From: Limisphaerales bacterium
GTDB taxonomy: Bacteria > Verrucomicrobiota > Verrucomicrobiia > Limisphaerales > DSYF01
DNA length: 64,000 bases
Direction: 5' to 3'
NCBI GenBank assembly: GCA_046290825.1
Contig: JBKBTZ010000003.1
Coordinates: 9,881 to 73,880 of the forward strand
Each line of letters starts with the position of its first letter. Position 1 is the first letter of the stretch. The translations under genes and the position numbers were made by a program. Below are positions 3,501-63,532 of the stretch, piece by piece. Under the pieces are notes generated by a model. The model ran no database searches, was not told the origin of the DNA, and was given only the letters and a program-made list of their open reading frames with translations.

Positions 3501-3658
3501 TCAACACCGGCACGGGACGCGGGTGGTTCCGGCAGATGCGTCCAAAGAATGTCAGACTGCGCCATCGCGGCGCCGGTCAGACCAATCAGGGCCAGACCGC
3601 CGGACCAGCGGCGAAGGCCGCGCCAAACAGGTAGGATAATTACGAGGATGAATTTCAT
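578..3658 (-). CDS. secreted reprolysin-like (metzincin) zinc metalloprotease with P-domain-like and C-terminal Fn3-like modules
   Basis: ORF 578..3952 trimmed to ATG 3658 (MKFILVIILPVW, signal-like). It has the HEMGHQFGANH motif (HExxHxxGxxH) and an IMAY Met-turn. It also has a DPNGDALTY module and CARDB-like and proprotein-convertase P-domain-like segments. Confidence 0.8.
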   Translation of the reverse strand: MKFILVIILPVWRGLRRWSGGLALIGLTGAAMAQSDILWTHLPEPPASRAGVERWVAPTGGAMFAWDEAAFRGSLGAVPSGEPWQARTAGALLPVPLPDGEVRWFRVVETSIMEPGLAVKFPEIKTFAGEAVDDPATTLRADVTPAGFHAQVLGPEGAIYVDPAYRGDTTHYVSYRRAEQWREAGAFQCLVPGGETVPGVLPRPEGERTLFGATLRTYRLACAATGEYTQFHGGTVAQGQAAIVTAINRINGIFEREFAVRLILVANNDLLVFTNPGSDPYTNDDGVTMLTQNQTTVNSIIGSANYDIGHVFSTGGGGVASLGSVCSSTRKAQGVTGSSSPTGDSFWVDYVAHEMGHQFGANHTFNATSGSCGFGNRNASTATEPGSGSTIMAYAGICAPNNLQPNSDPYFHATSLAEILAFLNGSGGACAANVPTGNAAPSVDAGPAYVIPARTPFALTAIAADPNGDALTYCWEQMDTGAAQSLNDPDNGSSPLFRSFPPTNNPTRFFPRLTSVLANTNWNQEKLPVLNRTMKFRVTVRDNRAGGGGVADADTTVTVISNAGPFVVTAPNSAVTWSNVQTVTWNVAGTAAAPINTAGVNIWLSTNGGLHFPFLLASNVPNTGAAEVVLPPVSSTRARIKVEGAGNIFYDVSDTNFTVVPGLPIPLLVVERGAVLLESCPPGNQNVDPGETVTMELRFRNIGLASTTNLLATLLATNGVLAPGPAETLGVIAPGQMVTRAFTFTASGPCASNVNAQVRLTDNAAVLGQPVVAIPMGSPVVVTQQFTSTAPITINTFGTALPYPGRVNVAGVDGNVIKTTIRLNGLSHTRVSDIAVLAEGPGGQTVMLLGYPGAATASSAQLVFDDNASGPVPGDGGVLLSGTWLPTDNSAPPLTAPAPAGPYGTSVNALAATPNGEWKLYVQDFLSTKGGSIPGGWTVTLVTSNRVCCTAFPPPTLAATSVSGNAAHLRWQTVPGARYQVEFRTNLVLGAWQNLGGVITGIGGETNFTDNAATSPERYYRIRLVP

Positions 3659-3911
3659 GGTTGTGGGGGTGGGCAAGGTTGCGCCCGGTCTAACCAAACC
3701 CAGGTCGGAACACAATCCGTGAATAGGTCGCGCTTGGGAATCAGGGCGTCCACACCAGTTGCCGTGAGGCAGGGCCGGGACAAGGCGGTCGGCAGAGCGC
3801 GGGAAATTCTTTCCCCCCACGCGGGTAGAGGCCTCCCCTGCTGACGGCACACAGCCAACTACCTCCCGACAAAAGCAATGAGCTCCACTGACCGCCCGCT
3901 CCAAGCGCCCA

Positions 3912-6900: not shown

Positions 6901-6980
6901 GCTGACTGACCAGCCGCTGGACTCAGACAACCCAGGGCGAACGCAAAAACGGAAGTTGCCGCCAAAGCGCGTCGTTTCAT
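3912..6980 (-). CDS. secreted reprolysin-like (metzincin) zinc metalloprotease, tandem paralog of 578..3658
   Basis: 1022-aa ORF with a signal peptide (MKRRALAATSVFAFALGCLSPAAG) and HEMGHQLGANH. It is collinear with the neighbour across all domains (for example LACAATGEYTQFHGGTVA.GQAAIVTA.NRINGIFE). Confidence 0.85.
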   Translation of the reverse strand: MKRRALAATSVFAFALGCLSPAAGQSASSAASSPWEYLGEVAAQRGGPERWVAPQRGGVFRVNHSQLAVELAEVAPAEPSEISAVGRVVTVPMPDGGTARFRIVETPVMAPELAAQFPDVKTYAGEGIDDPEATARFDVTPAGFHGQILSPHGSIYVDPAFRGDRDHVVSYYKRDNVPLAEEWQCAVLRETIATGGGTALKTQSGPALRTFRLACAATGEYTQFHGGTVALGQAAIVTAVNRINGIFEKELAVRLVLVGNNSLLVFTNPGTDPYDNFDGSAMLSQNQATVDAIIGSANYDIGHVFSTGGGGIATLGCVCTTGIKARGVTGSSSPTGDSFWVDYVAHEMGHQLGANHTFNATSGSCGGGNRNASTAYEPGSGSTIMAYAGICSPNNLQSQGDAYFHTASLDEIQAFLSSVSCAATSATGNSAPTVSVGGPYTIPAGTPFFLTASATDPNGDALTYCWEQRDLGPASGLTGMDSGSGPLFRSLPPTNSPTRFFPRVSSVLANTNWNQEVLPATTRTLNFRVTVRDNRAAGGGVADADTVVNVINTGAPFRVTSPNTALVWSNTHTVTWDVAGTASSPINVANVNIFLSTDGGQTWPHWIATNVPNTGSRTINVQGLVSTQARIKVEAAGGIFYDVSDVNFTISTLAPDLSVGPVTLLAESCLPTNGVVDPYETVTLNWAITNSGNAPTTNLVATLLATNGVYFPSAPQNYGVIPPGGVVSRPFTFTAGGPCGGAVTGVVQLADGPANYGTRSRVFNLGAPQINVVTQVFNNASPITIRDNNTALPYPSTINVSGVTNPVTKMTVSLNGLTHTYVEDVFVLLAAPNGQRTILMSYTYPGPVNGITLTFDDEAASLVPYSGGIPSGTYQPTDYYYGEAGPYDLPPPAPGWYYDYRLAPLAVSPNGTWSLYFFDYASPDAGLLASWTLRFVTAVTNTVCCGTLPAPVFTSTTWSNGVARLTWAAVPGPNYQVQFRTNLTSGSWQNLGAPVPGTNTLLSITNAAPNEPMRFYRILVQP

Positions 6981-7033: not shown

Positions 7034-8512
7034 TCAGTGGCCCGAAGCGCTGCTCAACAAACCGATCAACCCCGCCGGCGCGCAGCCCAGCGCCACCACT
7101 AGCACCGCCAACACCACCAACGTCAGGAGCGTCGCCAACGGCACTCGGATCGCATCGGCCCGGTCGGTCCCATCCGTCACATACACCGCCTTCAACACCC
7201 GCAGATAGTAGTAGAACGAAACCGCGCTCATCGCGATGGCCAGCACCACCAGCCACAACAGCCCGAGGTGCTTCGCCTCCGCCCCCACCACCGCGCTGAA
7301 CACAAAAAACTTTCCGATAAACCCCGCCAGCGGCGGAATGCCGCCCAGCGACAGCAGGAACACCAGCAAACACAATGACAAGACCGGTGCCCGGCGGCTC
7401 AAGCCCGCGAAGCTCGCGAGGGCATCATTCCCCGTCGCGTCCTCCACGACCTGCACGACGCCGAAAGCCCCAAGCGTGGTCACCGCGTAGGTGATGACGT
7501 AGAACAGCAAGGACGCCTGGCTCGTCTCCGTATTCGCCAGCACGCCGAGCAGCATGTAGCCCGCATGCGCAATCGCGGAATAAGCCAGCAGTCGCTTGAC
7601 GCTGCTTTGCGCGATGGCCGTGAGATTGCCCAGCACCATCGAAAGCGCCGCCACCACCGCCACCGTCGGCACCCAACCGGAAAGGAAACCGCGCCACACC
7701 CCGCTACCCTCCGCACCCGCGAACCCAATCATCATGACCTTTGCCAGAATGAAAAAGCTCGCCACCTTGGAACCCGTCGCAATGAACGCCGCGCTCGGCG
7801 TCGGCGCACCCTCATACGCGTCCGGCGCCCACAGATGGAACGGCACCGCCGCCACCTTGAACCCGAACCCGATCACCGTCATCACAATCGCGACGATCAA
7901 CATCGGGTCCAGCCCCTTGCCCGCCAGCCCGGTTGCAATCTCCCGCAGGTTCGTCGAACCCGACAGGCCATACAGCAGGCTGATGCCGAACAGCAGGCAC
8001 GCCGCCGCCATCCCGCCGAACAAGAAGTATTTCAGCGCCGCCTCCGCCGACCGGATGTTCCGCTTGTTGAACGCCGTCAGCACATAGAGCGAGAGACTGA
8101 GCAGTTCCAGCGAGATGAAGATCATCAGCAAATCCTCCGCACTCACGAGGAACATCATGCCCGCCGTCGCCAGCAGGATGAGCGCGAGATATTCGCCCAC
8201 GTGCTCGGTGAATTTGCTCGAAGTCGAAAGCACCACCGTGAAGATCGTCAGCCCGAGGATGGCCGCCTTGACCACGTTCGTCAGCGAATCCACCACGAAC
8301 ATGCCATTGGCAATGTTCGCCACGTCATGCCGCCCCACCGCCAGAAAGATGGCCAGCAGGCAGCCCACGCTGGCGATGGCCGCTCCCAGTCCGAATCGGA
8401 TGCGCACCGGCTGCTCGCGCAACGCCAGCAAATCCGCCGCCAGCACCGCCAGCGCCGTCAACACCACCGCCGTCTCCGGCGCGGCCAGCTTGAGTATTTC
8501 GAGATAGCTCAC
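7034..8512 (-). CDS. nuoN: NADH-quinone oxidoreductase subunit N
   Basis: ORF 7034..8563 trimmed to GTG 8512 (VSYLEILKL). GGGAGG lies 6 nt upstream and GTGA overlaps the nuoM stop. Polytopic ND2/NuoN-like sequence. Confidence 0.85.
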   Translation of the reverse strand: MSYLEILKLAAPETAVVLTALAVLAADLLALREQPVRIRFGLGAAIASVGCLLAIFLAVGRHDVANIANGMFVVDSLTNVVKAAILGLTIFTVVLSTSSKFTEHVGEYLALILLATAGMMFLVSAEDLLMIFISLELLSLSLYVLTAFNKRNIRSAEAALKYFLFGGMAAACLLFGISLLYGLSGSTNLREIATGLAGKGLDPMLIVAIVMTVIGFGFKVAAVPFHLWAPDAYEGAPTPSAAFIATGSKVASFFILAKVMMIGFAGAEGSGVWRGFLSGWVPTVAVVAALSMVLGNLTAIAQSSVKRLLAYSAIAHAGYMLLGVLANTETSQASLLFYVITYAVTTLGAFGVVQVVEDATGNDALASFAGLSRRAPVLSLCLLVFLLSLGGIPPLAGFIGKFFVFSAVVGAEAKHLGLLWLVVLAIAMSAVSFYYYLRVLKAVYVTDGTDRADAIRVPLATLLTLVVLAVLVVALGCAPAGLIGLLSSASGH

Positions 8513-10020
8513 AGCGCACCTCCCTTCGCCAGCAACCGTTGAAACAGCGGCGAGTTCAGGCACGGCTCAATCCAGTTCAGCAGCACGTTTGGGTAAAGCC
8601 CCACCAGCAGCGAAGTGCCGATCAGCAGCACCGCCCCAACCCGCTCCGGGACGGAGATCGGCTCCAGCTCGTGCGCGTGCTCGCCATCTGTCGAGCTGGT
8701 CACATCCGTCCCGTCTGCATAAAATCCCCGTTGCACCGCGCGCAACGTGTAAGCCACGCCCACCACGATGCCCACGCCCGCCAGCACCGCCGCCGCCGGA
8801 AAAGCCTTCCACGCGCCCATGAGCACCTGGAGTTCCGCCACAAATCCACTGAAGCCGGGCAGCCCCATCGAAGCCACGCCCGCGATGACAAACGTCACCG
8901 CCACGAACGGCAGCTTCCGGCTCAGGCCCATCAACTCCAGTTCGGTGAAGTCCCGCGTATGGGTCCGGTCATACAACATCCGGCCCACCACGGCGAACAG
9001 CAGCCCCGCGATAATGCCGTGCGAGAACATCTGCAACACCGCGCCGCTCAAGCCGACCGTGTTCAGCGTCGCCAGCCCCAGCAGCACGAAGCCCATGTGG
9101 CTCACGCTCGAATAGCCGATGACGAACTTGAAATCCTTCTGCACCAGCGCCACGCCCGCGCCATAGACGATGCCGATCACCGCCAGCACCGCGATGGCAG
9201 TCTTCCACATCGCCGCACCCTCGGGGAACAGCACCATCGCCACGCGCAGGCAGCCATAAGCGCCCAGCTTCATCACCACGCCGGCCAGCAACATCGAACC
9301 CGCCGTCGGTGCCGCCACGTGACCGGTCGGCGCCCACGTGTGGAACGGCCACAAGCCCGCGAGAATCGCGAACCCGACGAACGTCAGCGGGAAGGCCCAT
9401 TTCTGGAACTCCACCGGGAATGAAACTTTCGACAGCTCCACCAAATCCAGCGACGCGTGACCGAGTTGCCCCTTCGCCACCACCCAAGCCGCGATGAGTC
9501 CGATGAGCACGAGATGGCTGCCGACGAACGAATACAGCGCCAGCTTCATCGCGCCGTATTCCTTCCGCGTGCTGCCCCAGCGCGCGATGAGGAAATACTT
9601 CGGGATGATGGTCAACTCGTAGAACACGAACAGCAGCAGCAGATCGAAGCTGAGGAACACGCCATACACGCCGCCGATGAGCGCGAGGTAGAACGCGAAG
9701 AATTCCTTCGTCCGCTTCTCGATGTTCCAGGAAAACAAAATCCCCGCAATGGCTGCCAAGCCCGTTAGCACCACGAGCGTCAGACTAATGCCATCCGCCG
9801 CGAGATGATAATTCGCTCCCAGCGAAGGGATCCACGAGCAGTTCGTGATGGTCGCGATCTCGCCCGGATTGCCCTGCTGCAACGCGCCGATCAGCGCCAC
9901 GGCGAACCCGCCGATGGCCGTGAGCAGCGCCACCTTGCGCGCCGCCCGCGCGTCATCCCGCGGCAGGAGCATCAACACCAGCACGCCGAGAAACGAAATG
10001 TAAATGGTCCAAGCCAGCAT
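8509..10020 (-). CDS. nuoM: NADH-quinone oxidoreductase subunit M
   Basis: 503-aa ORF with ATG at 10020. ND4/NuoM-type antiporter-like subunit (WGSTRKEYGAMKLALYSFVGS). Confidence 0.9.
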   Translation of the reverse strand: MLAWTIYISFLGVLVLMLLPRDDARAARKVALLTAIGGFAVALIGALQQGNPGEIATITNCSWIPSLGANYHLAADGISLTLVVLTGLAAIAGILFSWNIEKRTKEFFAFYLALIGGVYGVFLSFDLLLLFVFYELTIIPKYFLIARWGSTRKEYGAMKLALYSFVGSHLVLIGLIAAWVVAKGQLGHASLDLVELSKVSFPVEFQKWAFPLTFVGFAILAGLWPFHTWAPTGHVAAPTAGSMLLAGVVMKLGAYGCLRVAMVLFPEGAAMWKTAIAVLAVIGIVYGAGVALVQKDFKFVIGYSSVSHMGFVLLGLATLNTVGLSGAVLQMFSHGIIAGLLFAVVGRMLYDRTHTRDFTELELMGLSRKLPFVAVTFVIAGVASMGLPGFSGFVAELQVLMGAWKAFPAAAVLAGVGIVVGVAYTLRAVQRGFYADGTDVTSSTDGEHAHELEPISVPERVGAVLLIGTSLLVGLYPNVLLNWIEPCLNSPLFQRLLAKGGAL

Positions 10021-10029
10021 GTTCAGTAT

Positions 10030-10223
10030 TTGGAGTGCGGTGACTTGTCACCGCTTTCACCGCTTTGGCGACTGGTCTCCAAAGCAGAGCCGCGTCCAGC
10101 GGCTCGACGAACAACGAAAGCCTGACGCTTCGCCGCCAGGCCGCCGCAAACAAATCGAACGCCCCGGGTGATTGACGGCGACAAGTCGCCTGCGGAAAGC
10201 GGCGACAAGTCACCGCACTCCAA
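10030..10223. repeat. about 194-bp palindromic element with terminal inverted repeats TTGGAGTGCGGTGACTTGTCACCGCTTTC / GAAAGCGGCGACAAGTCACCGCACTCCAA (family F)
   Basis: The arms at 10030..10058 and 10196..10223 are reverse complements. Each arm contains its own 8-bp hairpin (GCGGTGAC-TT-GTCACCGC). There are internal hairpins GCTTTGG..CCAAAGC and GGCGACAAGTCGCC. Confidence 0.75.
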
Positions 10224-10255
10224 GGCGGGCAGCCACCCCGCCACACCAGTTTCAA

Positions 10256-10285
10256 ATCCGTGTCTATCCGTGTTCATCCGTGGTT
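10256..10285. repeat. three tandem 10-nt units ATCCGTGTCT/ATCCGTGTTC/ATCCGTGGTT abutting the nuoM(2) stop codon
   Basis: Read directly from the sequence. A single related unit (CATCCGTGGTTA) follows the family F copy at 30409..30422. Confidence 0.7.
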
Positions 10286-11915
10286 AAAAATTCAGTTGCT
10301 CCACCAGCTTCACGACGGTCGCGTCCACCACGCCCAGCACGAGCTGCGGATACAGCCCCAGCACGAACATCAGCACCGTGCCCGGCAGCACGAGCAGCAG
10401 TTCGCCGGGCGACAAGTCAGGCAGGCGCGCCCACTTCTCGTTCAGTGGGCCGCAGAACACGCGCTGAATCAGCGTCAGCAGGAAAATCGCCGTCACGAGG
10501 ATGCCGATCGTGGAAATCGCCGCGGCCCACGGCGCGAGCGGAAACACGCCCTTGAAGATGAGGAATTCGCCGACGAACCCGTTCAGCCCTGGCAACCCGA
10601 GCGAGGAGAACAACGCGATGCCCATCAAGCCGGTGAACACCGGCACCACTTTGCGGATGCCGCCAAAGTCATCCAGCCCGCGCATTCCCCCGCTCCGCTT
10701 CTCCAGCAGGCTGACGAAGAGGAACAGCGCCGACGCCGTCAGGCCGTGGTTGAACATCTGGAGCAGCACACCGTTCAACGCGGCGGCTTTCTGGAGTTCC
10801 GGCTGGTTCACCGCCGTGGCCGCGCCGGCCGCCGCAAACATCGCGAGCAGACAGTAGCCAAGGTGGTTGATGGATGAGTAGGCCAGCATCCGCTTGAGAT
10901 CGCGCTGGGCGAACGCCGCGCACGCCGAGAGCACAATGGTCAGCACGGCGAGCCACAGCAGCGGCGTCAGCACGAGGCGGATTTGCTCGGGGAAGATCGG
11001 CAGCAGGATGCGGAGGAAGCCATACACGCCCATCTTCGACATCACGCCCGTGAGCAGCATCGTCACCGGGCTGGGGGCCTCGGAATACGCTGACGGCAGC
11101 CACGTATGAAACGGCACCACCGGCACCTTCACCGCGAACCCGAGAAACGCGCCACCGAAGATGATCAGCCCGAGCGTCTGGTAACTCAGCGTCTTCCAGC
11201 CGAGAGCATCGCCAAGTTTGGTGACGATTTCGCCGCGCTTGGCCATGTCCGAGAGTTCGATGAAATCAAAACTGCCCGTCGCCAGCCGCAGCGCGAGGAA
11301 GCTCAACAACAGCGCCACGCTCCCGACCATTGTGTAGATGAAAAACTGCGTCGCCGCCGGGCCGCGATTGGGTCCGCCCCAGAGCTTGATGAGGAAGAAC
11401 GCGGGGATCAGCGCCAGTTCCCAAAACAGGAACCAGTGGAAGAAATTCAGCGCCGTGAACGTGCCGAACAACCCCGCCTGCAACCACAACACCAGCGCGC
11501 CAAAAAGGTGGGCGTTGTCAACGCTCCCCTCACCCGCCCTTCGGGCACCCTCTCCCCGTCCGACGGGGAGAGGGCCGGGGTGAGGGGCCGCCCCGGCAAA
11601 TAGACGGTTGGAGGCCAGCAACGCCAGCGGCGTGACGATGGCCGTGAGCAACAGCATCAGCAGGCCCAGCCCGTCCACGCCCAGGCGGTATTGGATGCCG
11701 AGCGATTTCACCCAGTCGAACTGCTCGGTGAATTGCAGGTCACCCGACGCGGCGTTGAAGTTCTTCCACAAAAGCAGAGTCAGGCCGAGCGAGAGGAAGC
11801 TGAAGGTCAGCGTCAGCTTGCGCGCGAGCTTCTGCTGGTCACGCAGTCCAATGACCACAACCCCGCCGAAGACTGGCAGGAGCGTGAGGATGGTCAGCCA
11901 GGGAAAACCATTCAT
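10284..11915 (-). CDS. nuoM: NADH-quinone oxidoreductase subunit M, second paralog
   Basis: 543-aa ORF whose ATG overlaps the nuoL stop (ATGA). NuoM-type sequence (MNGFPWLTILTLLPVFGG.., WGGPNRGPAATQFFIYTMVGS). It carries a repeat-encoded insert, PHPGPLPVGRGEGARRAGEG. Confidence 0.85.
   Translation of the reverse strand: MNGFPWLTILTLLPVFGGVVVIGLRDQQKLARKLTLTFSFLSLGLTLLLWKNFNAASGDLQFTEQFDWVKSLGIQYRLGVDGLGLLMLLLTAIVTPLALLASNRLFAGAAPHPGPLPVGRGEGARRAGEGSVDNAHLFGALVLWLQAGLFGTFTALNFFHWFLFWELALIPAFFLIKLWGGPNRGPAATQFFIYTMVGSVALLLSFLALRLATGSFDFIELSDMAKRGEIVTKLGDALGWKTLSYQTLGLIIFGGAFLGFAVKVPVVPFHTWLPSAYSEAPSPVTMLLTGVMSKMGVYGFLRILLPIFPEQIRLVLTPLLWLAVLTIVLSACAAFAQRDLKRMLAYSSINHLGYCLLAMFAAAGAATAVNQPELQKAAALNGVLLQMFNHGLTASALFLFVSLLEKRSGGMRGLDDFGGIRKVVPVFTGLMGIALFSSLGLPGLNGFVGEFLIFKGVFPLAPWAAAISTIGILVTAIFLLTLIQRVFCGPLNEKWARLPDLSPGELLLVLPGTVLMFVLGLYPQLVLGVVDATVVKLVEQLNF
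11526..11587. repeat. 62-bp nested palindrome (family G): CCCCTCACCC..CCCTCTCCCCG-TCCGA-CGGGGAGAGGG..GGGTGAGGGG
   Basis: The outer 10-bp and inner 11-bp stems are perfect reverse complements. A near-identical copy lies at 63472..63532. Confidence 0.8.
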
Positions 11916-14068
11916 GACTTACGCCCCCACACGAGGAAGATGACCAGCACCACCAGCGCGACGCCGAGAACACGCAGGTAGGTTTGCACGCGGCCCGTGT
12001 GCAATTTGGACAGGCCGCCCCCGCCGCGCCGGATGCCCTCGCAGCCGGCGTCGAAACCCAGGTTCACCACAAATTCATCCGTGATGCGGTAGAGCCACGC
12101 CAGCCCGACCGTGATGCCGGACACAACCATTACCGCCCCGCCCCAAATCCAACGGTCTGCGAAATCGCACGCCTTGGCGAACCACGCGTTGAAGCGGATG
12201 ACGGTGGCTTCGTAAAGTTCATCCACGAAATACTTGTTCTTCAGCAGCGCGAAGATGTCGGGCCGCGCGACTTCGAGCACGTCCGGCTCCGCCGCCGTCT
12301 TGCGCTGACGTTTGCCGTAGAGCCACCAGCCAAGTCCGAGACCGGTGAACACGATGAGCGCCGAGGCGCCCATCAAACCGAGCGTGCCGGATTCGGTGAG
12401 CTTGCTGAAGTTGAACTCCGCGTGATGCCCGTTCAGATACGACTCAAACCACGGCCACGCGGGCGTGCCAATGATTCCCAGAAGCACGGCACAAACGGCG
12501 AGGGTGACGAGCGGCCACGTCATGACGCCGGGACTTTCGTGCGGCTCCTTGGAGTGCGCGGACTTGTCCGCGCTTTTCAAGAAGGCTCCGGTCGCGTGAA
12601 CGCCATCCGACTTCGCGTGGTTCTTGGAAAGCGGCGACGAGTCGCCGCACTCCACATGCCCGCCGCGATAGTGCCCGAAAAACACCAGCGCCACCTGCCG
12701 CGTCATGTAAAACGCGGTCAGCAGCGCGCCCGCGCAGCCGATGTAGAACGGCCAGTGCGACACCGGCCAGTTGTGCGCCGCGTGCAGGATTTCGTCCTTG
12801 CTCCAGAACCCGGAGAAGAACAGCGGGAAGCCCGCAAGCGCCAGCATGCCGACCGCGTAGGTCGCGAACGTCACCGGCATGAACTTCTTCAGCCCGCCCA
12901 TGTGCCGGATGTCCTGCTCTTCATGGCATCCGTGAATCACCGAGCCGGAACCGAGGAACAGCAGCGCCTTGAAGAATGCATGCGTAATGAGATGGAACAT
13001 GCCCACCGCCACACCACCGACGCCGAGGCCCATCATCATGTAGCCGAGCTGCGAAACCGTAGAGTAGGCGAGGATGCGCTTGATGTCATTCTGGGCGACG
13101 GCGATGGAGGCGGCGAAAATTGCGGTGAGTGCGCCAACCCAGGTCACGACCTGGAGCGCAGCAGTCACCGGCACACCGTCCGCCCCTGCCCCGCCTGCTC
13201 CCATCAACGGGAACACCCGCGCCACAAGGAACACGCCCGCCGCCACCATCGTCGCCGCGTGGATAAGCGCGCTGACGGGCGTCGGGCCTTCCATCGCGTC
13301 CGGCAACCACACGTGCAACGGCAACTGGCCGGACTTGCCGACCGCGCCGAGGAAGATGAGCAGGCCAATCGCGGTTGAAACGGCCATGCCCGCGCAAGTT
13401 GTCTTGGCAACCATCGCCGCGAGCGCAGATTGTTGCAGGCAGCCAGTGCCATCCTCGGTGTAAAAACTCAACGTGCCCGTTTGCGCGTAAAGCCAGACCA
13501 TGCCGATGAGCAGGCCGAGGTCGCCGATGCGCGTAGTGATGAATGCCTTCTTCGCCGCCGCCGCCGCGCTGGGTTTGTGATACCAGAAGCCAATGAGCAG
13601 ATAGCTGGTCAGGCCGACGATCTCCCACGACATGAACAACAGCAGAAGATTGTTCGCGATGACCACGCCGAGCATCCCCGCCGCGAACAGTGACAGGAAA
13701 CAGAAGAACCGCGTGAAATTCTCGTCGTGCGCCATGTAGCCGATGCTGAAGATGAAGATGAGCGCGCCGACGAACGTGACCATCACCAGCATCACCGCCG
13801 TGAGCGGGTCGAGCACCCAGCCAAGTTGCAGCCATTGCCCGCCAAACTGGAGCCAGTTGAAATTGAAGACCAAAGGCTCCGCCCCGTGCCCGCCATGCTT
13901 GAACGTCGCCGCCAGGGCACAAAGCGAGAGCAGGAACGCGCCGACCATCGAACCGACCGCAAGCGTCCAAGCCCGCGTCCGTTTCGGCTGCGTGCTGACG
14001 GCGATCAGCCCCGCCGCCAGCAAAGGCAGCGCGGGAATCAGCCAGAGGTTTTTTACGATCCAGATCAT
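11912..14068 (-). CDS. nuoL: NADH-quinone oxidoreductase subunit L (long form, 718 aa)
   Basis: ND5/NuoL-type sequence (MSWEIVGLTSYLLIGFW, HESP, C-terminal amphipathic helix plus final TM). ATG 14068 lies 1 nt after the vapC stop. Confidence 0.9.
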   Translation of the reverse strand: MIWIVKNLWLIPALPLLAAGLIAVSTQPKRTRAWTLAVGSMVGAFLLSLCALAATFKHGGHGAEPLVFNFNWLQFGGQWLQLGWVLDPLTAVMLVMVTFVGALIFIFSIGYMAHDENFTRFFCFLSLFAAGMLGVVIANNLLLLFMSWEIVGLTSYLLIGFWYHKPSAAAAAKKAFITTRIGDLGLLIGMVWLYAQTGTLSFYTEDGTGCLQQSALAAMVAKTTCAGMAVSTAIGLLIFLGAVGKSGQLPLHVWLPDAMEGPTPVSALIHAATMVAAGVFLVARVFPLMGAGGAGADGVPVTAALQVVTWVGALTAIFAASIAVAQNDIKRILAYSTVSQLGYMMMGLGVGGVAVGMFHLITHAFFKALLFLGSGSVIHGCHEEQDIRHMGGLKKFMPVTFATYAVGMLALAGFPLFFSGFWSKDEILHAAHNWPVSHWPFYIGCAGALLTAFYMTRQVALVFFGHYRGGHVECGDSSPLSKNHAKSDGVHATGAFLKSADKSAHSKEPHESPGVMTWPLVTLAVCAVLLGIIGTPAWPWFESYLNGHHAEFNFSKLTESGTLGLMGASALIVFTGLGLGWWLYGKRQRKTAAEPDVLEVARPDIFALLKNKYFVDELYEATVIRFNAWFAKACDFADRWIWGGAVMVVSGITVGLAWLYRITDEFVVNLGFDAGCEGIRRGGGGLSKLHTGRVQTYLRVLGVALVVLVIFLVWGRKS
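12549..12654. repeat. short (about 106 bp) family F element inside the nuoL coding sequence
   Basis: Arms TTGGAGTGCGCGGACTTGTCCGCGCTTTTC (12549..) and GAAAGCGGCGACGAGTCGCCGCACTCCA (..12654). It is translated in frame as ECGDSSPLSKNHAKSDGVHATGAFLKSADKSAHS. Confidence 0.7.
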
Positions 14069-14069
14069 G

Positions 14070-14477
14070 TCATTTGATCGGCGGACAAATCAGCGGGATG
14101 GTTTCCCGTTTGTTGCGGCGATAGACGCGAAAGTCCTCCCGGTCAGTGGTCAATATCGCGCGATCCGGGTTGAGTTCACTCATGCGGATCAGGCAAAGGT
14201 CGGCAAGATCAGGGGCGCGATCCTTGTAACGGTCCGCAAGTTCCACCAAATGCATGAGATGATCGTTTGCGTCAAAAGCCACGGCTACAAACTGATCCTC
14301 CAGCAAGCCTAGAATGGCGCGGGAGTCCTGGAGAAGGTAGGCGGCCTCCGCCAGCACAGCCTCACACGTCAGCACGGGAACATCCAACTGCGCCTCGACG
14401 CCCATGGCCCAATCGTGATGCGCATCCCGCGCATTGACATACGCCACAAGGAAACCGGTGTCGGCAATGGCCTTCAT
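14070..14477 (-). CDS. vapC: PIN-domain ribonuclease toxin VapC
   Basis: ORF 14070..14645 trimmed to ATG 14477 (MKAIADTGFLVAY). It shows the PIN acidic pattern: D6, E in TCEAVLAEA, D in DLADLCL, D in TTDRED. ATGA overlaps the upstream antitoxin. Confidence 0.8.
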   Translation of the reverse strand: MKAIADTGFLVAYVNARDAHHDWAMGVEAQLDVPVLTCEAVLAEAAYLLQDSRAILGLLEDQFVAVAFDANDHLMHLVELADRYKDRAPDLADLCLIRMSELNPDRAILTTDREDFRVYRRNKRETIPLICPPIK

Positions 14478-14689
14478 CCGCGCGAGAATCCCTTTCGCAT
14501 GGACAGGTCGCGTGGCCCGTTCTTGAGATAACCAGCCCAGCGCAGATGCGGACGCCCGCCCGCCGCTGCGCGGGCCTTCTCCAACTGGTCGCGAATCACC
14601 TTGCCCTGCGGCACACCGGTGCGCTCCGAGGTTTCCGCCAGCCACTCGGCCAGCTCCTTGTTAAGACGAACTGTGATTGTATGACTCAT
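14474..14689 (-). CDS. ribbon-helix-helix (CopG-like) antitoxin, VapB-type
   Basis: 71-aa ORF MSHTITVRLNKELAEWLAETSERTGVPQGKVIRDQLEKA with an RHH-like N-terminus. It is translationally coupled to vapC. Confidence 0.7.
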   Translation of the reverse strand: MSHTITVRLNKELAEWLAETSERTGVPQGKVIRDQLEKARAAAGGRPHLRWAGYLKNGPRDLSMRKGFSRG

Positions 14690-14713
14690 ACGGCAAAAGT
14701 GTATTCGCCCGGG

Positions 14714-15025
14714 TCAGCCTTTCAAGTTTCTCACTTCATCCAAATTCGCCGTCTTGTAATGGCGGTAGATGGCGATGATGAGCGCCAAACCCACCGCCGC
14801 CTCCGCCGCCGCGAGGGCGATGGAGAAGATCACGAATATCACGCCGGTCAACGCCTCGGGATTCGGGCCGAAGCGCCAAAACGCGATGAAGTTCAGGTTT
14901 GCCGCGTTGAGCATCAGTTCGATGCCGATGAGCGCGATGATGGCATTGCGCCGGGTCAGCGCGCCGGCCAACCCGATGGCGAAGAGCAGGGCACTGACCA
15001 GGAGGCAGCCTTGGAGCGAGGTCAT
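14714..15025 (-). CDS. nuoK: NADH-quinone oxidoreductase subunit K
   Basis: ORF trimmed to ATG 15025 ([42 protein letters not shown]). 103 aa, with ATGA overlapping the nuoJ stop. Confidence 0.9.
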
Positions 15026-15606
15026 GCTTTCCTCCCTGAAGTTGGAGGGTGGAGGATGGAGGATGGAGCGGACGGCTCTGCCATCTTCGATTCTCGATCT
15101 GCCATCTTCGTCCCCGGCACCTCGTCGCGCATTGCAATGATGACCGCCCCAATCATCGCCGCCGTGAGCAGCAGGCCCATGACTTCGAGCGGCAGGACGT
15201 ATTTGCTCATCAGCGCGTCGCCGATGTTCTTCACGGTCACGTCCGGCGCGGCGGGCGTTTCCTTCGCGATTGCGTTGCTGTTCAACACGGCCCAGCCGAG
15301 CGCGGTAAACACGAGGGCGGAGATGATGATTCCCGCAATCCATCCCGGTGCGAGGACGGCCTGGTTTGGCGTGTCACCACTGCGCGTGAGCAGGATGGCA
15401 AACACGATGAGAATGGCGACCGCCCCGATGTAAACGAGCACCTGCGCGAAGCCAACGAACTGCGCGTGAAGTTGCAGAAACAGCGCCGCGAGCCCCGCGA
15501 ACGTCACCACGAGCGACAGCGCGCAATGAACGAGGTTGCGCAGGCTCATGGCTGCCGCGGCGGAAAGCAGCGTCACCAGTGCGAGGATTAGGAATACGGG
15601 GGTCAT
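15022..15606 (-). CDS. nuoJ: NADH-quinone oxidoreductase subunit J
   Basis: The ORF track start at 15618 is TTG. ATG 15606 ([19 protein letters not shown]) lies 1 nt after the nuoH stop. ND6/NuoJ-like TM pattern. The C-terminal 33 aa are repeat-encoded. Confidence 0.8.
15044..15110. repeat. heptamer array GGAGGGT/GGAGGAT/GGAGGAT/GGAGCGG followed by a 21-nt direct repeat TCTGCCATCTTCG.. (family E)
   Basis: Read directly. The second part carries a partial complement (CCATCTTC) of the first. Confidence 0.6.
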
Positions 15607-15607
15607 G

Positions 15608-16804
15608 TCAGTCCGCAAACCGGTAGGTGCGTCGGCCCAGCCGCTTCTTTTCCATCAACCCGCGGCCAAGCAGGATGTAAGGGCCGACGACCAGCAGCGC
15701 GCAGACGATCCAGCGCGCAAAGCCCGGCCCCATGAAATGCCAGACGGCCGCGACAACCACGTTGATGAGGGCCAGGGGAATCATGAACTTCCAGGCAAAG
15801 TTCATGAGCTGGTCCATGCGCAGGCGGGGCAGCGTGCCGCGAATCCAGATGAACGTGAAGACGATGGCCAGCAGCTTGAGGAAAAACCACACATACGACG
15901 GCACCCATGTCAGGAACGGGAACGGCGCATGCCAGCCGCCGAGAAACAGGGTGATGCCCAGCCCGGCGATGGCGAACATGCCGAGGTATTCCCCAAGAAA
16001 GAAGAGGGCGAACTTGAACCCGGAGTATTCCGTGAAGTAACCCGCGATGATTTCCGATTCGGCCTCCGGGAGGTCAAAGGGGGCACGGTTCGACTCCGCG
16101 AGCGACGCGATAAAGAACAGCACAAAGCCCGCGAAGCCCCACGGCGTCAGCACAAACCAATTCGGCAGCAGGCCGGTGTGGCCCGCCTGGGCGGCGACAA
16201 TCGCATTCAGGTTCAGCGAGCCGACGATCATGATGACCGCCACAGAGGAAAGGATGAGGGGGATTTCGTAGCTGATCATCTGCGCGATGCCGCGCATGGC
16301 GCCGAGGAGCGAATACTTGTTGCGGCTGGACCAGCCCGCCATGAACACCGCCAGTTCCACCGCTCCGCCGACGGCGAAGAAAAACAGCACGCCGGCGTCG
16401 AAGTCCGCCACCGACATGTGGCGGCCAATGGGCAGCACCGCATAGGCGAGCAGCACGGGAATGAGCAGCACGACCGGAGCGAGGAAATGAACCACCTTGT
16501 CCGCCGCGCGCGGGACGACGTCCTCCTTGATGAGCGCCTTGATGCCGTCGGGAATGAACTGGCCAAAGCCGCACAGGCGGATGTCGGTGAAAGGAATGCC
16601 GACGCGATTGGGGCCGTAACGGTTCTGGATGCGGCCCAGCCCCTTGCGCTCGAAGATTGTCACCAGGGCAAACAAACCGCCGAACACGGCAACCAGCGGG
16701 GCGACTGACAGGACGGCCGAAGCAAGCGGCTGCCAGGCGTCGGGAAACAATCCGACGGCCCAGCGTTTCAAGATGACGAAAAATTGGTCCAGCGTGTCGG
16801 CCAT
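15608..16804 (-). CDS. nuoH: NADH-quinone oxidoreductase subunit H
   Basis: ORF 15608..16861 trimmed to ATG 16804 (MADTLDQFF). ND1/NuoH motifs: ERKGLGRIQNRYGPNRVG, FAESE-like LAESNRAPFDLPEAESE. Confidence 0.9.
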   Translation of the reverse strand: MADTLDQFFVILKRWAVGLFPDAWQPLASAVLSVAPLVAVFGGLFALVTIFERKGLGRIQNRYGPNRVGIPFTDIRLCGFGQFIPDGIKALIKEDVVPRAADKVVHFLAPVVLLIPVLLAYAVLPIGRHMSVADFDAGVLFFFAVGGAVELAVFMAGWSSRNKYSLLGAMRGIAQMISYEIPLILSSVAVIMIVGSLNLNAIVAAQAGHTGLLPNWFVLTPWGFAGFVLFFIASLAESNRAPFDLPEAESEIIAGYFTEYSGFKFALFFLGEYLGMFAIAGLGITLFLGGWHAPFPFLTWVPSYVWFFLKLLAIVFTFIWIRGTLPRLRMDQLMNFAWKFMIPLALINVVVAAVWHFMGPGFARWIVCALLVVGPYILLGRGLMEKKRLGRRTYRFAD

Positions 16805-16927
16805 GTTTACTTCACAGGCGGCGGCCCCTAGAGGGCCGCAGGGTTGACGGAAAACCCCCATGAATCAAGGCGTGAAACCGGGGCACGGGCGGGTGCCCGC
16901 CGGATTCAGGACACCTAACCGGCAGCA

Positions 16928-17512
16928 TTACGCGGCTTGAGTGGCGGGTTTCGCCTTCGCGTCCGCCGCCGCGCGCGCCTTGGCCTCGGCCTTGGCCTTC
17001 TCCGCGGCCAGCGCGGCATCGGAAGCCGCAGCATCGGCCGGATGAATTTTATGGTAGTGCGCGTTGGACTTGGCGAGGCGGTCCTTCGAGTAAAGCAGTC
17101 CGCCGAAGCGGTCGTCCGTGCTCAACTCGAATTCGGTGTCCATTTTGATGGATTCGAAGGGACAAACCTCCACACAGATCTGGCAGCTCATGCAGACCGA
17201 AATGTCGATGTCGAACACCGCCGGATAGAACTGCATCTGGCCCTTGTAGTCGGGCTTCTTGTCCTTGCTCTTGACGATGTAAATGCACTGGGGAGGACAC
17301 TCCTTTTCACAAATCTGGCAGGCCACACAGCGCAGCCCTTTTTCGGGGTCGTCCCCATCATAGACGAGGAAGGGAAACTGGCGGGCGTTCTCCTTGGGCG
17401 GCAGGCGCTCCTCCGGGTATTGGACCGTGGGCAGCCGGTCTTTCGAGACGTAACTCCCGAGAAAGTTTTTGGCGGTGACCGCCATGCCCTTGATGATGGC
17501 TTCGCCTAGCAT
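16928..17512 (-). CDS. nuoI: NADH-quinone oxidoreductase subunit I (2x[4Fe-4S])
   Basis: ORF trimmed to ATG 17512 (MLGEAIIKGMAVTAKNF). Two ferredoxin motifs, CVACQICEKECP and CMSCQICVEVCP. Ala/Lys-rich tail. Confidence 0.9.
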   Translation of the reverse strand: MLGEAIIKGMAVTAKNFLGSYVSKDRLPTVQYPEERLPPKENARQFPFLVYDGDDPEKGLRCVACQICEKECPPQCIYIVKSKDKKPDYKGQMQFYPAVFDIDISVCMSCQICVEVCPFESIKMDTEFELSTDDRFGGLLYSKDRLAKSNAHYHKIHPADAAASDAALAAEKAKAEAKARAAADAKAKPATQAA

Positions 17513-17519
17513 GGGGAAA

Positions 17520-17604
17520 GGTTGAGGGTTGAAGGTTGAAGGTTGAAGGTTCTCCAGGTTGAACGCACGCCAGCTGTCCCAACCTGCAACTGGCAACCTT
17601 CAAC
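17520..17604. repeat. heptamer array (GGTTGAR)x4 plus the complementary arm CAACCTTCAAC (family C hairpin)
   Basis: Units at 17520, 17527, 17534 and 17541. The segment 17594..17604 is the exact reverse complement of GTTGAAGGTTG. Confidence 0.7.
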
Positions 17605-17621
17605 TTGAAACCAACGCGCGC

Positions 17622-18788
17622 TCACCGGTCCACCTCCCCCAGGACAATGTCCACGCTGCCGAGGATGATCACAGCGTCGGCCACACGCTGCCCCAGACAC
17701 ATGTCCTCGAGAATGGTCAAATTGATAAAGCTGGGCGGCCGCACGCGGTAGCGATAGGGATTGGGCGAGCCGTCGCTGATCAGGTAGAATCCCAATTCTC
17801 CTTTCGGGGCTTCGATGCGGCCGTAAGCCTCGCCCGCCTTGGGGCGAAAGCCGCGCAACTTTGCCTTGGGGTCCATCACCGGGCCGGGGGGGATGTCCCG
17901 CAGGGCCTGGCGGAGAATTTTCACGCTCTCGCGCATCTCCAGCACGCGTATCATGAAGCGGTCGTAAAGATCGCCGTGTTCGCCCAGCGGCACCTTGAAG
18001 TCAAACCGGTCGTAGATCCCGTATTTGTCCACCTTGCGGATGTCGTAATTGACACCGCTGGCGCGGAGCATCGGTCCGGTGACGGACGCATTGATGGCCA
18101 GTTCGCGCGGCAGCACACCGACACCCTGGGTGCGGGCCAGGAGAATCTCGTTCTCGTTGAACAGCGTTTCGAACTCGTCCAAAAACGGGTCGTAGCCCTC
18201 AACCAGTTGCCGGGCACGCTGCAGCCAGGCGTCGGACACGTCGCAACGGACGCCGCCGAACCGCATGTAGTTATACATCATGCGGGCGCCGGTCAGCTCC
18301 TCGAACAGATCGAGGATCTTCTCTCGCTCCCGGAAGGCATACATGAGCGGCGTGCCGAGCGCGCCCATGTCCTGGACCAGGAAGCCGATGAGACAGGTGT
18401 GATTCTGAAGACGCGTGAGTTCGGCGGCAATCACGCGGATGTATTCGGCGCGCTCGGGAACCTGCAAACCCGCCAGCTTCTCGACAGTCAGGGCGTAGGC
18501 CCAGTTGTTCGTCATCGAACAGAAGTAGTCCAGCCGGTCCGTGTAAGGCATCGAGGCCAGATACGTTGTGCCCTCGGCAATCTTCTCGTGATTGCGGTGG
18601 AGGTAGCCGAAAACGGGCTTGAGCTTGACCACCTTCTCGCCGTCGAGCACCACGTCCATGCGAAACACCCCGTGGGTGGACGGATGATGCGGTCCCATCG
18701 AAACCTCCAGCAATTCCCCTTCGGGATCGGAGCCTTTGGGAAGCAGTTCGTAATTCTTCCGGGCGGGGATTTCGGTGATGGCGCTCAT
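17622..18788 (-). CDS. nuoD: NADH-quinone oxidoreductase subunit D
   Basis: 388-aa ORF, 49-kDa/NuoD-like ([14 protein letters not shown], ..RPPSFINL..), with ATGA overlapping the nuoC stop. Confidence 0.95.
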
Positions 18789-19420
18789 GGCTGGACCTCC
18801 CGCGCGTGGTGCGCCTTCACCCTCTCCAACACCCGGTCATGCGGCGTCGGCTCGTATTCGTAATCATCCGGCTCCACGTAATCTTTGCGCATGGGATGGC
18901 CTTCGAACTCGTCCCACATGAGGATGCGACGCAGATCGGGATGGCCGTCGAAGACGATTCCGAACAAGTCGTAGGCCTCGCGTTCCTGGAATTCGCAGCC
19001 GCGCCAGACGGGCGTCAGCGAAGGCACCCGGACCTTGTCGGCGCGATCCTCGGTGCGCAGGCGAAGGATCACGGGACCATGCTTGTGACGCATCGAATAG
19101 AGGTGATACACCACCTCCAGATGCCCGGAGCGGAGGGTGTCAATCGTCTCCTCGACCTCCTTCTCCACACCATCCACCACGACCCGCTTTTTCAACTTCG
19201 TTTTCACGACCGCTTCGGGCCAATCCACACCGGTGACGTTGGAGCAGTAGTCCAGCGCGAGGTCGGGATCATCCCGCAGGAAACGGGCGAAGGCCACGGC
19301 GTGCTCGTGATCCACGCGGAGGGAGCGCTGGCCAGCGGGGCTGTCGTTCTCAAGGATGTCGAGCCGGGCGCCGGGGCAGCGGTCCACGAAGCGGGCCTTG
19401 ATTTGTTCGAGCGTTTCCAC
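18785..19420 (-). CDS. nuoC: NADH-quinone oxidoreductase subunit C
   Basis: 211-aa ORF with a GTG start 3 nt after the nuoB stop. 30-kDa subunit motifs: [22 protein letters not shown]. Confidence 0.9.
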
Positions 19421-19423
19421 GGG

Positions 19424-20035
19424 TCAGCGGATGAGGGTGGGCGGGTGCCAGATCTGATCGTTTTTTGGTGGCTCCAGATCTTTCGGACCGTATTTCGGCA
19501 CGGGAAATTCACTGGGCGCATTGGGGTCAAGATGCCGCGGCTTGTCCGGCCCGGTGAGGCTCTGCGCTTCGATTTTTTTCTGCAAGGTCATGAACGCGTG
19601 AATCAATGCCTCGGGCCGGGGCGGGCAGCCCGGAATCACCACGTCCACCGGAATGTATCGGTCTATGCCCTTGAGCACGTTGTAACCCTGTTTGAACGGG
19701 CCGCCAGAGATGGCGCACGCACCCATGGCGATGACGTATTTTGGCTCGGGCATCTGGTTGTAGAGACGCACCACCAGCGGCGCCATCTTCTTCGTCACCG
19801 TGCCCGCGACGATCATGAGGTCCGCCTGTCGCGGCGAGGGACGGAACACTTCCGCGCCAAAGCGCGCCAGGTCGAAGCGCGCCATTGAAGTCGCAATCAT
19901 TTCGATGGCGCAACACGCGAGGCCAAACGTCAGGGGCCATACGGAGTTGGAGCGTCCCCAGTTGTAAAGCTCCTCCAGGGTCGTGGTGAACACGCCCTGT
20001 TTTTGCAATTCGCTTCTGAGTCCTTCGTCAATCAC
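19424..20035 (-). CDS. nuoB: NADH-quinone oxidoreductase subunit B
   Basis: PSST/NuoB motifs: [34 protein letters not shown] prefer GTG 20035 (GGAG 7 nt upstream). The ORF track start at 20125 would translate the AAGATT repeat. Confidence 0.8.
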
Positions 20036-20053
20036 GGCTTTGCTCCGGCTCGA

Positions 20054-20141
20054 GGGATCAAGATTAAGATTATGATCAAGAAAACCGGCGTAAGCCCCCG
20101 GCCTCCCTCTTAATCTTCCTTTCAATCATAATCTTAATCCC
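20054..20141. repeat. palindrome built on AAGATT hexamers (family A): GGGATCAAGATTAAGATTATGATCAAG ... CAATCATAATCTTAATCCC
   Basis: The 15-nt core GATTAAGATTATGAT and its reverse complement ATCATAATCTTAATC are separated by about 45 nt. It fills the nuoA/nuoB junction. Confidence 0.7.
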
Positions 20142-20147
20142 TTTCGG

Positions 20148-20525
20148 TTATTTCCACGTCAGCACACCCTTCCGCCACGCCCAAACCAGTCCCTCCACCA
20201 GCAACAACAGAAAAATCATCATCGCCACGAAAGCCCCCGCGCTGAGGCCGGTGAAGGAGACCGCGAAGGGCAGCAGAAAAATCGTCTCCACGTCGAAAAC
20301 GAGAAAGATGATGCCGTAGAGATAATACTCGGAGCGGAAATGGATCCATGCATCCCCCTTGGATTCCAGGCCGCACTCGTAAATGGCATTTTTGTCCGGC
20401 CCGGGTTTGGGGGGTGAAAAAAATTTCGCCCACAGCCACGCTAGTGTCAGCGGCGCCGCCGCGAAGGCGATGGCTGTCACCATGAGCACGGCAAGGACCA
20501 GATAGGGCGATTCAGCGGCGCTCAT
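20148..20525 (-). CDS. nuoA: NADH-quinone oxidoreductase subunit A
   Basis: ORF 20148..20903 trimmed to ATG 20525 (MSAAESPYLVLAVLMV). 125 aa, ND3/NuoA-like (YECG, FLVFDVE). Confidence 0.9.
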   Translation of the reverse strand: MSAAESPYLVLAVLMVTAIAFAAAPLTLAWLWAKFFSPPKPGPDKNAIYECGLESKGDAWIHFRSEYYLYGIIFLVFDVETIFLLPFAVSFTGLSAGAFVAMMIFLLLLVEGLVWAWRKGVLTWK

Positions 20526-63471: not shown

Positions 63472-63532
63472 CCCCTCACCCGCCCTTTGGGCACCCTCTC
63501 CCCTTCCGAAGGGGAGAGGGAAGGGTGAGGGG
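63472..63532. repeat. 61-bp nested palindrome (family G), intergenic copy
   Basis: CCCCTCACCCGCCCTTTGGGCACCCTCTCCCCTTCCGAAGGGGAGAGGGAAGGGTGAGGGG, nearly identical to 11526..11587. Confidence 0.8.

Follow-up and report, generated by a model that had tools for sequence, protein, structure and literature searches.

A VapBC-like toxin–antitoxin cassette at the nuoK–nuoL junction of a Limisphaerales complex I operon, probably a long-standing passenger

The 64,000-nt stretch of contig JBKBTZ010000003.1 from a Limisphaerales bacterium (hereafter the window, meaning the whole stretch analysed) carries on its minus strand a co-oriented set of genes for the respiratory NDH-1 enzyme (complex I), in which two small open reading frames (ORFs) stand between nuoK and nuoL. 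The first encodes a ribbon-helix-helix (RHH) protein and the second a PIN-domain protein. The genes nuoA, B, C, D, H, I, J, K, L, M and N were all found in the cluster, while Pfam and NCBIfam searches of the cluster ORFs returned none of nuoE, nuoF and nuoG, the genes for the 24-kDa, 51-kDa and 75-kDa subunits. The two genes bordering the pair are securely assigned: NuoK matches Pfam Oxidored_q2 with 93 bits and the NCBIfam equivalog NF004320 with 105 bits (cut-off 57), and NuoL matches NF005141 with 625 bits together with Pfam Proton_antipo_N/M. A sequence-only reading of this DNA had placed an RHH antitoxin gene and a PIN toxin gene at this junction, 24 nt after nuoK, coupled to each other by an ATGA and followed directly by the nuoL start in the string TGAcATG, and all of these coordinates were confirmed on the minus strand (Table 1). 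In the ATGA overlap the PIN start codon occupies 14477-14475 and the RHH stop codon 14476-14474. An independent Logan assembly has the identical PIN–nuoL arrangement, and in a Limisphaerales metagenome-assembled genome (MAG) the pair is annotated by NCBI as MFN3407524.1 (RHH) and MFN3407523.1 (VapC family toxin).

Both proteins exceed the curated Pfam cut-offs of their families, the PIN protein with 26.7 bits against 23.6 and the RHH protein with 24.3 bits against 21.6 for RHH_3, the latter domain covering residues 5-33. Homologues of the PIN protein number in the thousands; among the 120 matches listed they are 125-139 residues long and nearly all have exactly 135. An alignment of 28 diverse homologues contains 41 invariant columns, including the catalytic acidic residues D6, E44, D93 and D112, whose loss the sequence-only reading had named as the sign of a decayed module; decay is not indicated. 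A profile search of solved structures matched VapC26 of Mycobacterium tuberculosis and aligned these four positions with Asp4, Glu42, Asp97 and Asp116, which form the metal-binding active site of that toxin (PMC5737657). The AlphaFold2 model of the PIN protein has a predicted local distance difference test score (pLDDT) of 91.4, and its top Foldseek matches are VapC26 (5x3t, TM 0.80) and VapC20 (5wzf). Both toxins cleave the sarcin-ricin loop of 23S rRNA (PMC5175351), and that loop can be taken as a lead for the target of the PIN protein, not as a result. In the RHH protein, an N-terminal TITVRL strand is conserved and forms, with the helices, the predicted DNA-binding part, and the alignment also shows a conserved C-terminal tail (MRWAG..PRDLSMRKGFS). 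The RHH gene lies directly upstream of the PIN gene in 88 of 88 loci, and the 4-nt overlap was confirmed in those embedded in nuo operons. By every sequence-level criterion the pair is an intact type II module of the VapBC type, in agreement with the earlier assignment to toxin–antitoxin (TA) systems of type II. For the PIN protein, Mg2+-dependent endoribonuclease activity is expected, with the RHH C-terminal tail neutralising it.

The pair resembles VapBC26 (Rv0581/Rv0582; 5X3T) and VapC20 (5WZF) of M. tuberculosis in its RHH-then-PIN order, its fold and its four acidic residues. The active site of the VapC26 toxin is blocked by a flexible stretch at the C-terminus of VapB26 (PMC5737657), and the conserved tail of the window antitoxin could act likewise. 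VapBC26, the nearest characterised relative, shares only about 22% sequence identity with the window pair, which, unlike the mycobacterial systems, sits inside a respiratory operon coupled to nuoL and belongs to a family spanning several phyla at about 60% identity.

Members of this family, 58-70% identical, were found in Acidobacteriota, Burkholderiales (Proteobacteria), Binatia, Rokubacteria, Planctomycetes, Cyanobacteria and Verrucomicrobia, and most copies lie away from nuo genes. The cassette occurs exactly between nuoK and nuoL in the verrucomicrobial loci L002-L009, L012, L027, L050, L052, L055, L105, L133, L169 and L171 (L-numbers are labels of the compared loci), which represent at least ten Limisphaerales-type lineages. 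These carriers are distant from the window, with NuoL identities of 57-70% and synonymous divergence (dS) in nuo genes of about 0.9-1.7. In most of them the gap between the PIN gene and nuoL is -4, about 0, 0, 1 or 7 nt; it widens to 130 nt in L055 and to about 2.8 kb of other cargo in L169. The gap between nuoK and the RHH gene ranges from 24 to 2354 nt across the carriers. On a neighbour-joining tree most nuo-embedded copies fall in one neighbourhood, interleaved with verrucomicrobial copies from outside nuo operons, and L055 stands apart; strict monophyly of the embedded copies is unsupported on this tree, which was built without bootstrap and is not decisive. A second syntenic setting was observed in the Acidobacteriaceae MAGs L058, L060, L064, L074, L076, L080, L082, L084 and L086, where the pair lies beside a divergent uvrC-like gene, assigned by eye from the sequence, and a common downstream ORF. 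Given this synteny, chromosomes of a further phylum appear to harbour the family stably as well.

Using NuoK as an anchor, we scanned 80 metagenomic loci whose NuoK is 69-94% identical to that of the window, 70 of which had enough sequence after nuoK to be informative. The two core genes are adjacent in 51 of the 70, with an ATGA overlap in 16 and a 1-nt gap in 9, which bears out the earlier statement that nuoK and nuoL are normally neighbours. The RHH-PIN cassette or a remnant of it is present in 5 and other content or a large gap in 14. The closest relative, L107, shares 94% identity with the window in NuoK as well as in NuoL; it has the ATGA overlap and no cassette. Deletion of the cassette has left a scar in L124, where a remnant matching PIN residues 111-134 persists between nuoK and nuoL (positions 4330-4398, E 8e-13); L124 was alone in this, the other nuoK–nuoL spacers (30-330 nt) giving no significant match. 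On the NuoK plus NuoL(1-110) neighbour-joining tree, cassette presence requires at least about ten state changes among 62 loci, an estimate from a rough tree.

In other relatives this boundary holds toxin genes, for PemK/MazF and, on the opposite strand, for a different PIN protein. The further cargo found there comprises a methyl-directed restriction enzyme of the Mrr type, an IetA-like AAA ATPase, a SUKH/SMI1 protein, an HNH protein, and IS200-like Y1 transposases with repeats resembling repetitive extragenic palindromes (REP). Judged from these sequences, the nuoK–nuoL boundary behaves as an insertion and defence hot spot, with the same core flanks and variable or no cargo among relatives, and the cassette appears to be dispensable for complex I. 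Two further loci, L114 (636-1970, minus strand) and L116 (1301-1600), show by eye an ArgJ-like ORF on the opposite strand after nuoK; nuoL does not appear within the remaining 0.5-1.7 kb of contig, and the nuo operon may be split in these genomes.

Several carriers also contain short pseudo-copies of the nuoL 5' end, here called nuoL'. In L002-L008 and L133 such a copy, running from the ATG to about codon 20-27, lies directly 5' of the TA promoter; these copies measure 59-81 nt, their identity is about 80-92%, and the one in L133 contains a stop codon. Since nuoL' adjoins the TA promoter on its upstream side, the cassette in these loci has a directly repeated nuoL 5' end on either side. The -35 box of their TA promoter, GCGCTTGCC, falls on nuoL codons 23-25, which read GCGCTTGCG in the genuine nuoL of L006, and this suggests microhomology at the left junction. 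L003 and L004 hold two copies each, in the array ORF255 / nuoL' / Y1_Tnp+ORF156 / nuoL' / RHH-PIN / nuoL, and comparable arrangements are found in L166 (Mrr / nuoL' / REP) and L169 (ORF215 / nuoL' / Y1_Tnp / nuoL). The cargo ORFs end within 0-4 nt of the ATG of nuoL or nuoL'. No integrase or recombinase family was found among the called genes of L002-L008, L169 and L171, and no attC-like hairpins were seen, the boundary repeats being the nuoL 5' pseudo-copies themselves. A hairpin in the nuoL 5' end was considered as a target of the Y1 transposases and rejected, the single-stranded DNA fold being insignificant (z -1.28).

Homologous recombination between nuoL' and nuoL could excise the cargo precisely, which would restore the ancestral junction; the excised circles could re-integrate, and unequal exchange could build arrays. 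The window has lost its upstream nuoL' copy. From CGGGCGAA onward its spacer agrees with L006 in the promoter spacer and the -10 region, and for this reason the window cassette would derive from the same nuo-embedded lineage and now be locked in. These observations raise a broader proposal, which we put forward as a speculation that is more doubtful than probable: that the boundary is a previously undescribed cassette-capture site inside an essential operon, built of units of cargo plus nuoL' that can be resolved by recombination between nuoL 5' repeats, and that where large arrays have built up, nuoL-M-M-N has come to be driven by the leaderless TA promoter under RHH control. If true, expression of the proton-pumping arm would be tied to the state of a toxin–antitoxin switch.

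The sequence-only reading described the gene pair correctly and missed that it has a conserved putative promoter of its own. Scanning the region of the window for consensus sites gave one sigma-70-like site against 0.3 expected, a match that taken alone is weak evidence. In the family, whatever the genomic context, the same layout precedes the RHH gene: TTG, 17 nt, TACAnT, 8 nt, ATG. Of the 86 distinct family loci, 84 have a TAnnnT -10 element placed exactly 8 nt ahead of the ATG, and about 70% have TTG at -37 to -35; T-14, A-13, C-12 and T-9 are 99-100% conserved and A-11 79%. Nucleotide conservation extends from -17 to +12, including positions -8 to -1 and the first 12 coding nucleotides, synonymous sites too. 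Spacers of 39-47 nt between nuoK and the RHH gene in some lineages consist essentially of this promoter alone. In the 24-nt spacer of the window the original -35 element has been lost, and the 3' end of nuoK supplies TTGAAA at the right distance through its final codons AAC TTG AAA GGC TGA; the -10 element ends 8 nt before the RHH ATG.

A GGGAGG Shine-Dalgarno motif stands 5' of the nuoK ATG; none is present in the 24-nt spacer of the window or at the nuoL start. Given the distance from the -10 element to the ATG and the lack of a Shine-Dalgarno motif, transcription probably starts at or next to the RHH ATG, judging from sequence, which would make the rhh-pin transcript leaderless. TA transcripts of M. 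tuberculosis are reported to be predominantly leaderless (PMC3898074, PMC8485053), and the window pair resembles those operons in the placement of the -10 element at the antitoxin ATG and in having no Shine-Dalgarno motif; it differs in belonging to another phylum, in a start deduced from motif and spacing only, and in a transcript that would continue into a respiratory gene. The RHH-PIN complex would be expected to repress this promoter.

Between the cassette, which is co-oriented with the operon, and nuoL no convincing terminator was found. A terminator-like stem in the 3' end of the PIN gene (14108-14094) was rejected, with 2 stems against 2.1 in shuffled sequence, and a search for known RNA families in 13000-16000 gave only sub-threshold chance matches. 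Since the cassette is co-oriented, lacks a convincing terminator and ends 1 nt before nuoL, the genes nuoL-M-M-N would be transcribed through it, from the nuo promoter, the TA promoter or both, and the earlier proposal that their expression is physically threaded through the cassette holds in this sense. Given the missing Shine-Dalgarno motif, coupling to PIN termination is the most likely way in which nuoL is translated; in cassette-free relatives the nuoL start overlaps the nuoK stop. The junctions would thereby form a termination-reinitiation relay leading from rhh through the ATGA to pin, through TGAcATG to nuoL, and through a 4-nt overlap to nuoM.

Among nuo-embedded copies, the median ratio of nonsynonymous to synonymous divergence (dN/dS) is 0.11 for PIN, 0.17 for RHH, 0.13 for NuoK and 0.23 for NuoL; both cassette genes thus appear, from these ratios, to be under purifying selection. 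The corresponding pN/pS values of nuo-embedded and other copies are 0.30 and 0.28 for PIN and 0.31 and 0.40 for RHH. No PIN residue is specific to the nuo-embedded copies, and only two RHH columns discriminate weakly. Against the nearest sampled copy, L006, the PIN protein is 89% identical and NuoL 70%, and a recent transfer between the two lineages was considered. This was rejected on the grounds that PIN dS is saturated at 2.1, and the high PIN identity is, for the same reason, a matter of constraint and not of recency. The GC content of the cassette (0.58-0.61) is nearly equal to that of the flanks (0.62-0.63), a comparison that the sequence-only reading had proposed and that gives no sign of recent arrival. 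With GC near the flanks and saturated dS to L006, the cassette is an old resident. Imported flanking DNA was also rejected, as the window keeps an even level of identity to L107 (about 0.85-0.92) up to both junctions and no recombination tract is visible.

Taken together, we consider it probable that the window holds a genuine, intact VapBC-like cassette that has long been lodged in the lineage-specific nuoK–nuoL insertion hot spot of a nuoEFG-less, Limisphaerales-type operon, as a selfish passenger with its own promoter. The passenger character is favoured by the absence of a shift in constraint, the absence of nuo-specific PIN residues and the patchy distribution; the hitch-hiking alternative of the sequence-only reading also fits the other selfish cargo at the same junction. 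The cassette would persist through TA addiction and selfish dynamics, helped by the circumstance that only a precise deletion would keep nuoL expressed. Several points weigh against this view. The window is the sole carrier in a clade of 14 close relatives on the NuoK plus NuoL tree, and for this reason vertical descent with losses and lateral re-acquisition are inseparable here. Divergence of the RHH protein tracks that of NuoK and NuoL (rho 0.59 and 0.71), which also fits a role in nuoL expression, while divergence of the PIN protein does not follow that of the Nuo proteins (rho 0.05-0.15). The tight PIN–nuoL junction of most lineages would fit such an acquired role as well. Neither NCBIfam nor PADLOC has a model that matches the RHH-PIN pair, and what is said of this family's promoter activity, autoregulation, leaderless start and RNase activity is inference.

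Co-option of the pair by the operon is the alternative closest to the second proposal of the sequence-only reading, in which VapB and VapC modulate the membrane arm. RHH-PIN would then serve as a conditional internal promoter for nuoL-M-M-N, or the PIN protein would process nuo mRNA, or both, adjusting the L/M/N stoichiometry to stress. The cassette has stayed at this junction across lineages with NuoL identity down to 57%, with a PIN–nuoL gap of -4 to +7 nt in most; shrinkage of the nuoK–RHH spacer to 24-47 nt has not cost it the promoter, and RHH nonsynonymous divergence co-varies with that of NuoK and NuoL. In L002-L004 and L133, 1.7-2.4 kb of foreign DNA lie between nuoK and the RHH gene and the TA promoter may mainly drive nuoL; co-option as an internal regulated promoter is most plausible in such cases, where kilobases of foreign DNA part the two genes. 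Modulation of the membrane arm is nevertheless not supported: constraint is not shifted, the PIN protein has no nuo-specific residues, and most relatives, including the closest, couple nuoK and nuoL directly without any cassette. Furthermore, the same family has the same promoter and the same constraint in unrelated contexts (beside uvrC in Acidobacteriaceae and beside a polysaccharide pyruvyl transferase gene in L170), and in L169 2.8 kb of other cargo separate the PIN gene from nuoL. We therefore regard domestication as unlikely. A role in anti-phage defence, by abortive infection from a small islet of defence genes within the nuo operon, would be compatible with the passenger reading as a sub-function, and the type IV restriction enzyme Mrr, the IetA-like AAA ATPase, HNH, PemK/MazF and second PIN TA genes at the junction of relatives speak for it; with neither protein matching a PADLOC model, and with a family that is vertically stable and syntenic in several phyla without rapid turnover, it seems quite improbable.

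TA modules are often mobile, and a recent insertion or an assembly artefact peculiar to this genome would agree with the position of the window as the only carrier among its 14 close NuoK/NuoL relatives. The same PIN–nuoL arrangement is nevertheless present in the independent Logan assembly and at least ten other lineages share the architecture, synonymous sites are saturated relative to the nearest sampled copy, GC has ameliorated, and the identity to L107 runs uniformly to both junctions, so that we give this explanation very little credence. The earlier description of TA modules as mobile elements thus holds for the type of system, whereas a one-off or recent insertion does not agree with the same junction in divergent lineages and with saturated dS. 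Decay does occur at the site, as the PIN fragment of L124 illustrates, but the window ORFs are full length, with catalytic residues and promoter motif intact and dN/dS of 0.1-0.2, and a non-functional remnant is scarcely credible.

Table 1. Coordinates of the features discussed. Positions without a locus label are those of the window; L-numbers denote compared loci with their own coordinates.
Feature	Position	Strand	Remarks
nuo operon hosting the cassette	7034..20522	-	nuoA-B-C-D-I-H-J-K-(RHH-PIN)-L-M-M'-N; Pfam/NCBIfam assignment of every ORF
nuoJ	15618..15022	-	
nuoK	15025..14714	-	103 aa; TGA stop 14716-14714
Sigma-70-type promoter-like site	14698..14725	-	-35 TTGAAA 14725-14720, 16-nt spacer, -10 TACACT 14703-14698
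nuoK–RHH spacer	14713..14690	-	24 nt, CCCGGGCGAATACACTTTTGCCGT
RHH antitoxin gene, VapB-like	14689..14474	-	71 aa; Pfam RHH_3
PIN toxin gene, VapC-like	14477..14070	-	135 aa; Pfam PIN
PIN-stop/nuoL-start junction TGAcATG	14066..14072	-	PIN TGA 14072-14070, C 14069, nuoL ATG 14068
nuoL	14068..11912	-	718 aa; 3' end overlaps nuoM by 4 nt
Cargo directly after nuoK in relatives (second PIN, PemK/MazF, IetA-like AAA, Mrr, SUKH/SMI1)	L162 1465-1866; L168 521-907; L133 2093-2518 and 2946-4295; L166 926-1837; L135 1086-1448	L162 -; L168 -; L133 - and +; L166 +; L135 +	
nuoL' pseudo-copies in relatives	L003 3487-3558 and 4673-4747; L002/L005 4673-4747; L006 4682-4777; L133 4292-4360; L166 1837-1932; L169 5343-5417		first 60-95 nt of nuoL

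The host operon has further features of its own. Downstream of nuoL, three antiporter-like genes follow on the minus strand (7034-11915), namely nuoM, a second nuoM-like gene and nuoN; the extra antiporter-like gene, together with the absence of nuoEFG from the cluster, suggests that the enzyme is a complex I-like variant in which one more subunit pumps. A pair of inverted arms (TTGGAGTGCGGTGACTTGTCACCGCTTTC and its complement), resembling a REP or a miniature inverted-repeat transposable element (MITE), lies in the intergenic region at 10028-10225 between the two nuoM-like genes, and a second copy stands in frame within the nuoL coding sequence at 12547-12657 (residues ..ECGDSSPLSKNHAKSDGVHATGAFLKSADKSAHSKE..), where it may account for part of the surplus of roughly 100 residues that this NuoL has over the NCBIfam model. 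The nuoM gene has an in-frame insertion of its own (PHPGPLPVGRGEGARRAGEGS, about 11526-11585, residues 111-130), with copies at 63472-63531 and 58731-58781 that are 76-80% identical to it at the protein level; it looks like another dispersed repeat tolerated within a membrane subunit gene. Directly downstream of the operon, two tandem large genes for Reprolysin-like (M12B) metallopeptidases occupy 578-6980 on the minus strand.

Chromosomal integron arrays are a familiar setting in which TA cassettes occur among variable small cargo at one site, with boundary repeats between the blocks. The junction described here is similar to such arrays and hot spots in its variable, mostly co-oriented cargo at a fixed site, its boundary repeats and its TA pair with a promoter of its own. 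It differs in that no integrase or attC hairpins were seen, in that the repeats consist of the opening 60-95 nt of a gene that is essential, and in that the site lies within an operon. Full-text literature searches brought up no relevant report of TA or PIN genes lying within a nuo operon or in verrucomicrobial complex I. What is new is a recurrent, ancient TA cassette in a respiratory operon, coupled to nuoL and carrying its own putative leaderless-type promoter, at a hot spot whose cargo is bounded by nuoL 5' sequences.

TA modules are usually viewed as free-standing, mobile two-gene operons. If the pair described here is a passenger only, it would call for caution in annotation, as a TA pair inside nuo need not imply respiratory regulation. 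The cargo blocks bounded by nuoL 5' sequences point to a testable recombination mechanism. One member of a TA family wedged in a respiratory operon across many lineages, under strong purifying selection, offers a natural test case for how a compact operon that is essential copes with insertions recurring at a single position, and for whether chromosomal TA systems persist by selfish addiction or through their usefulness as an internal regulated promoter.

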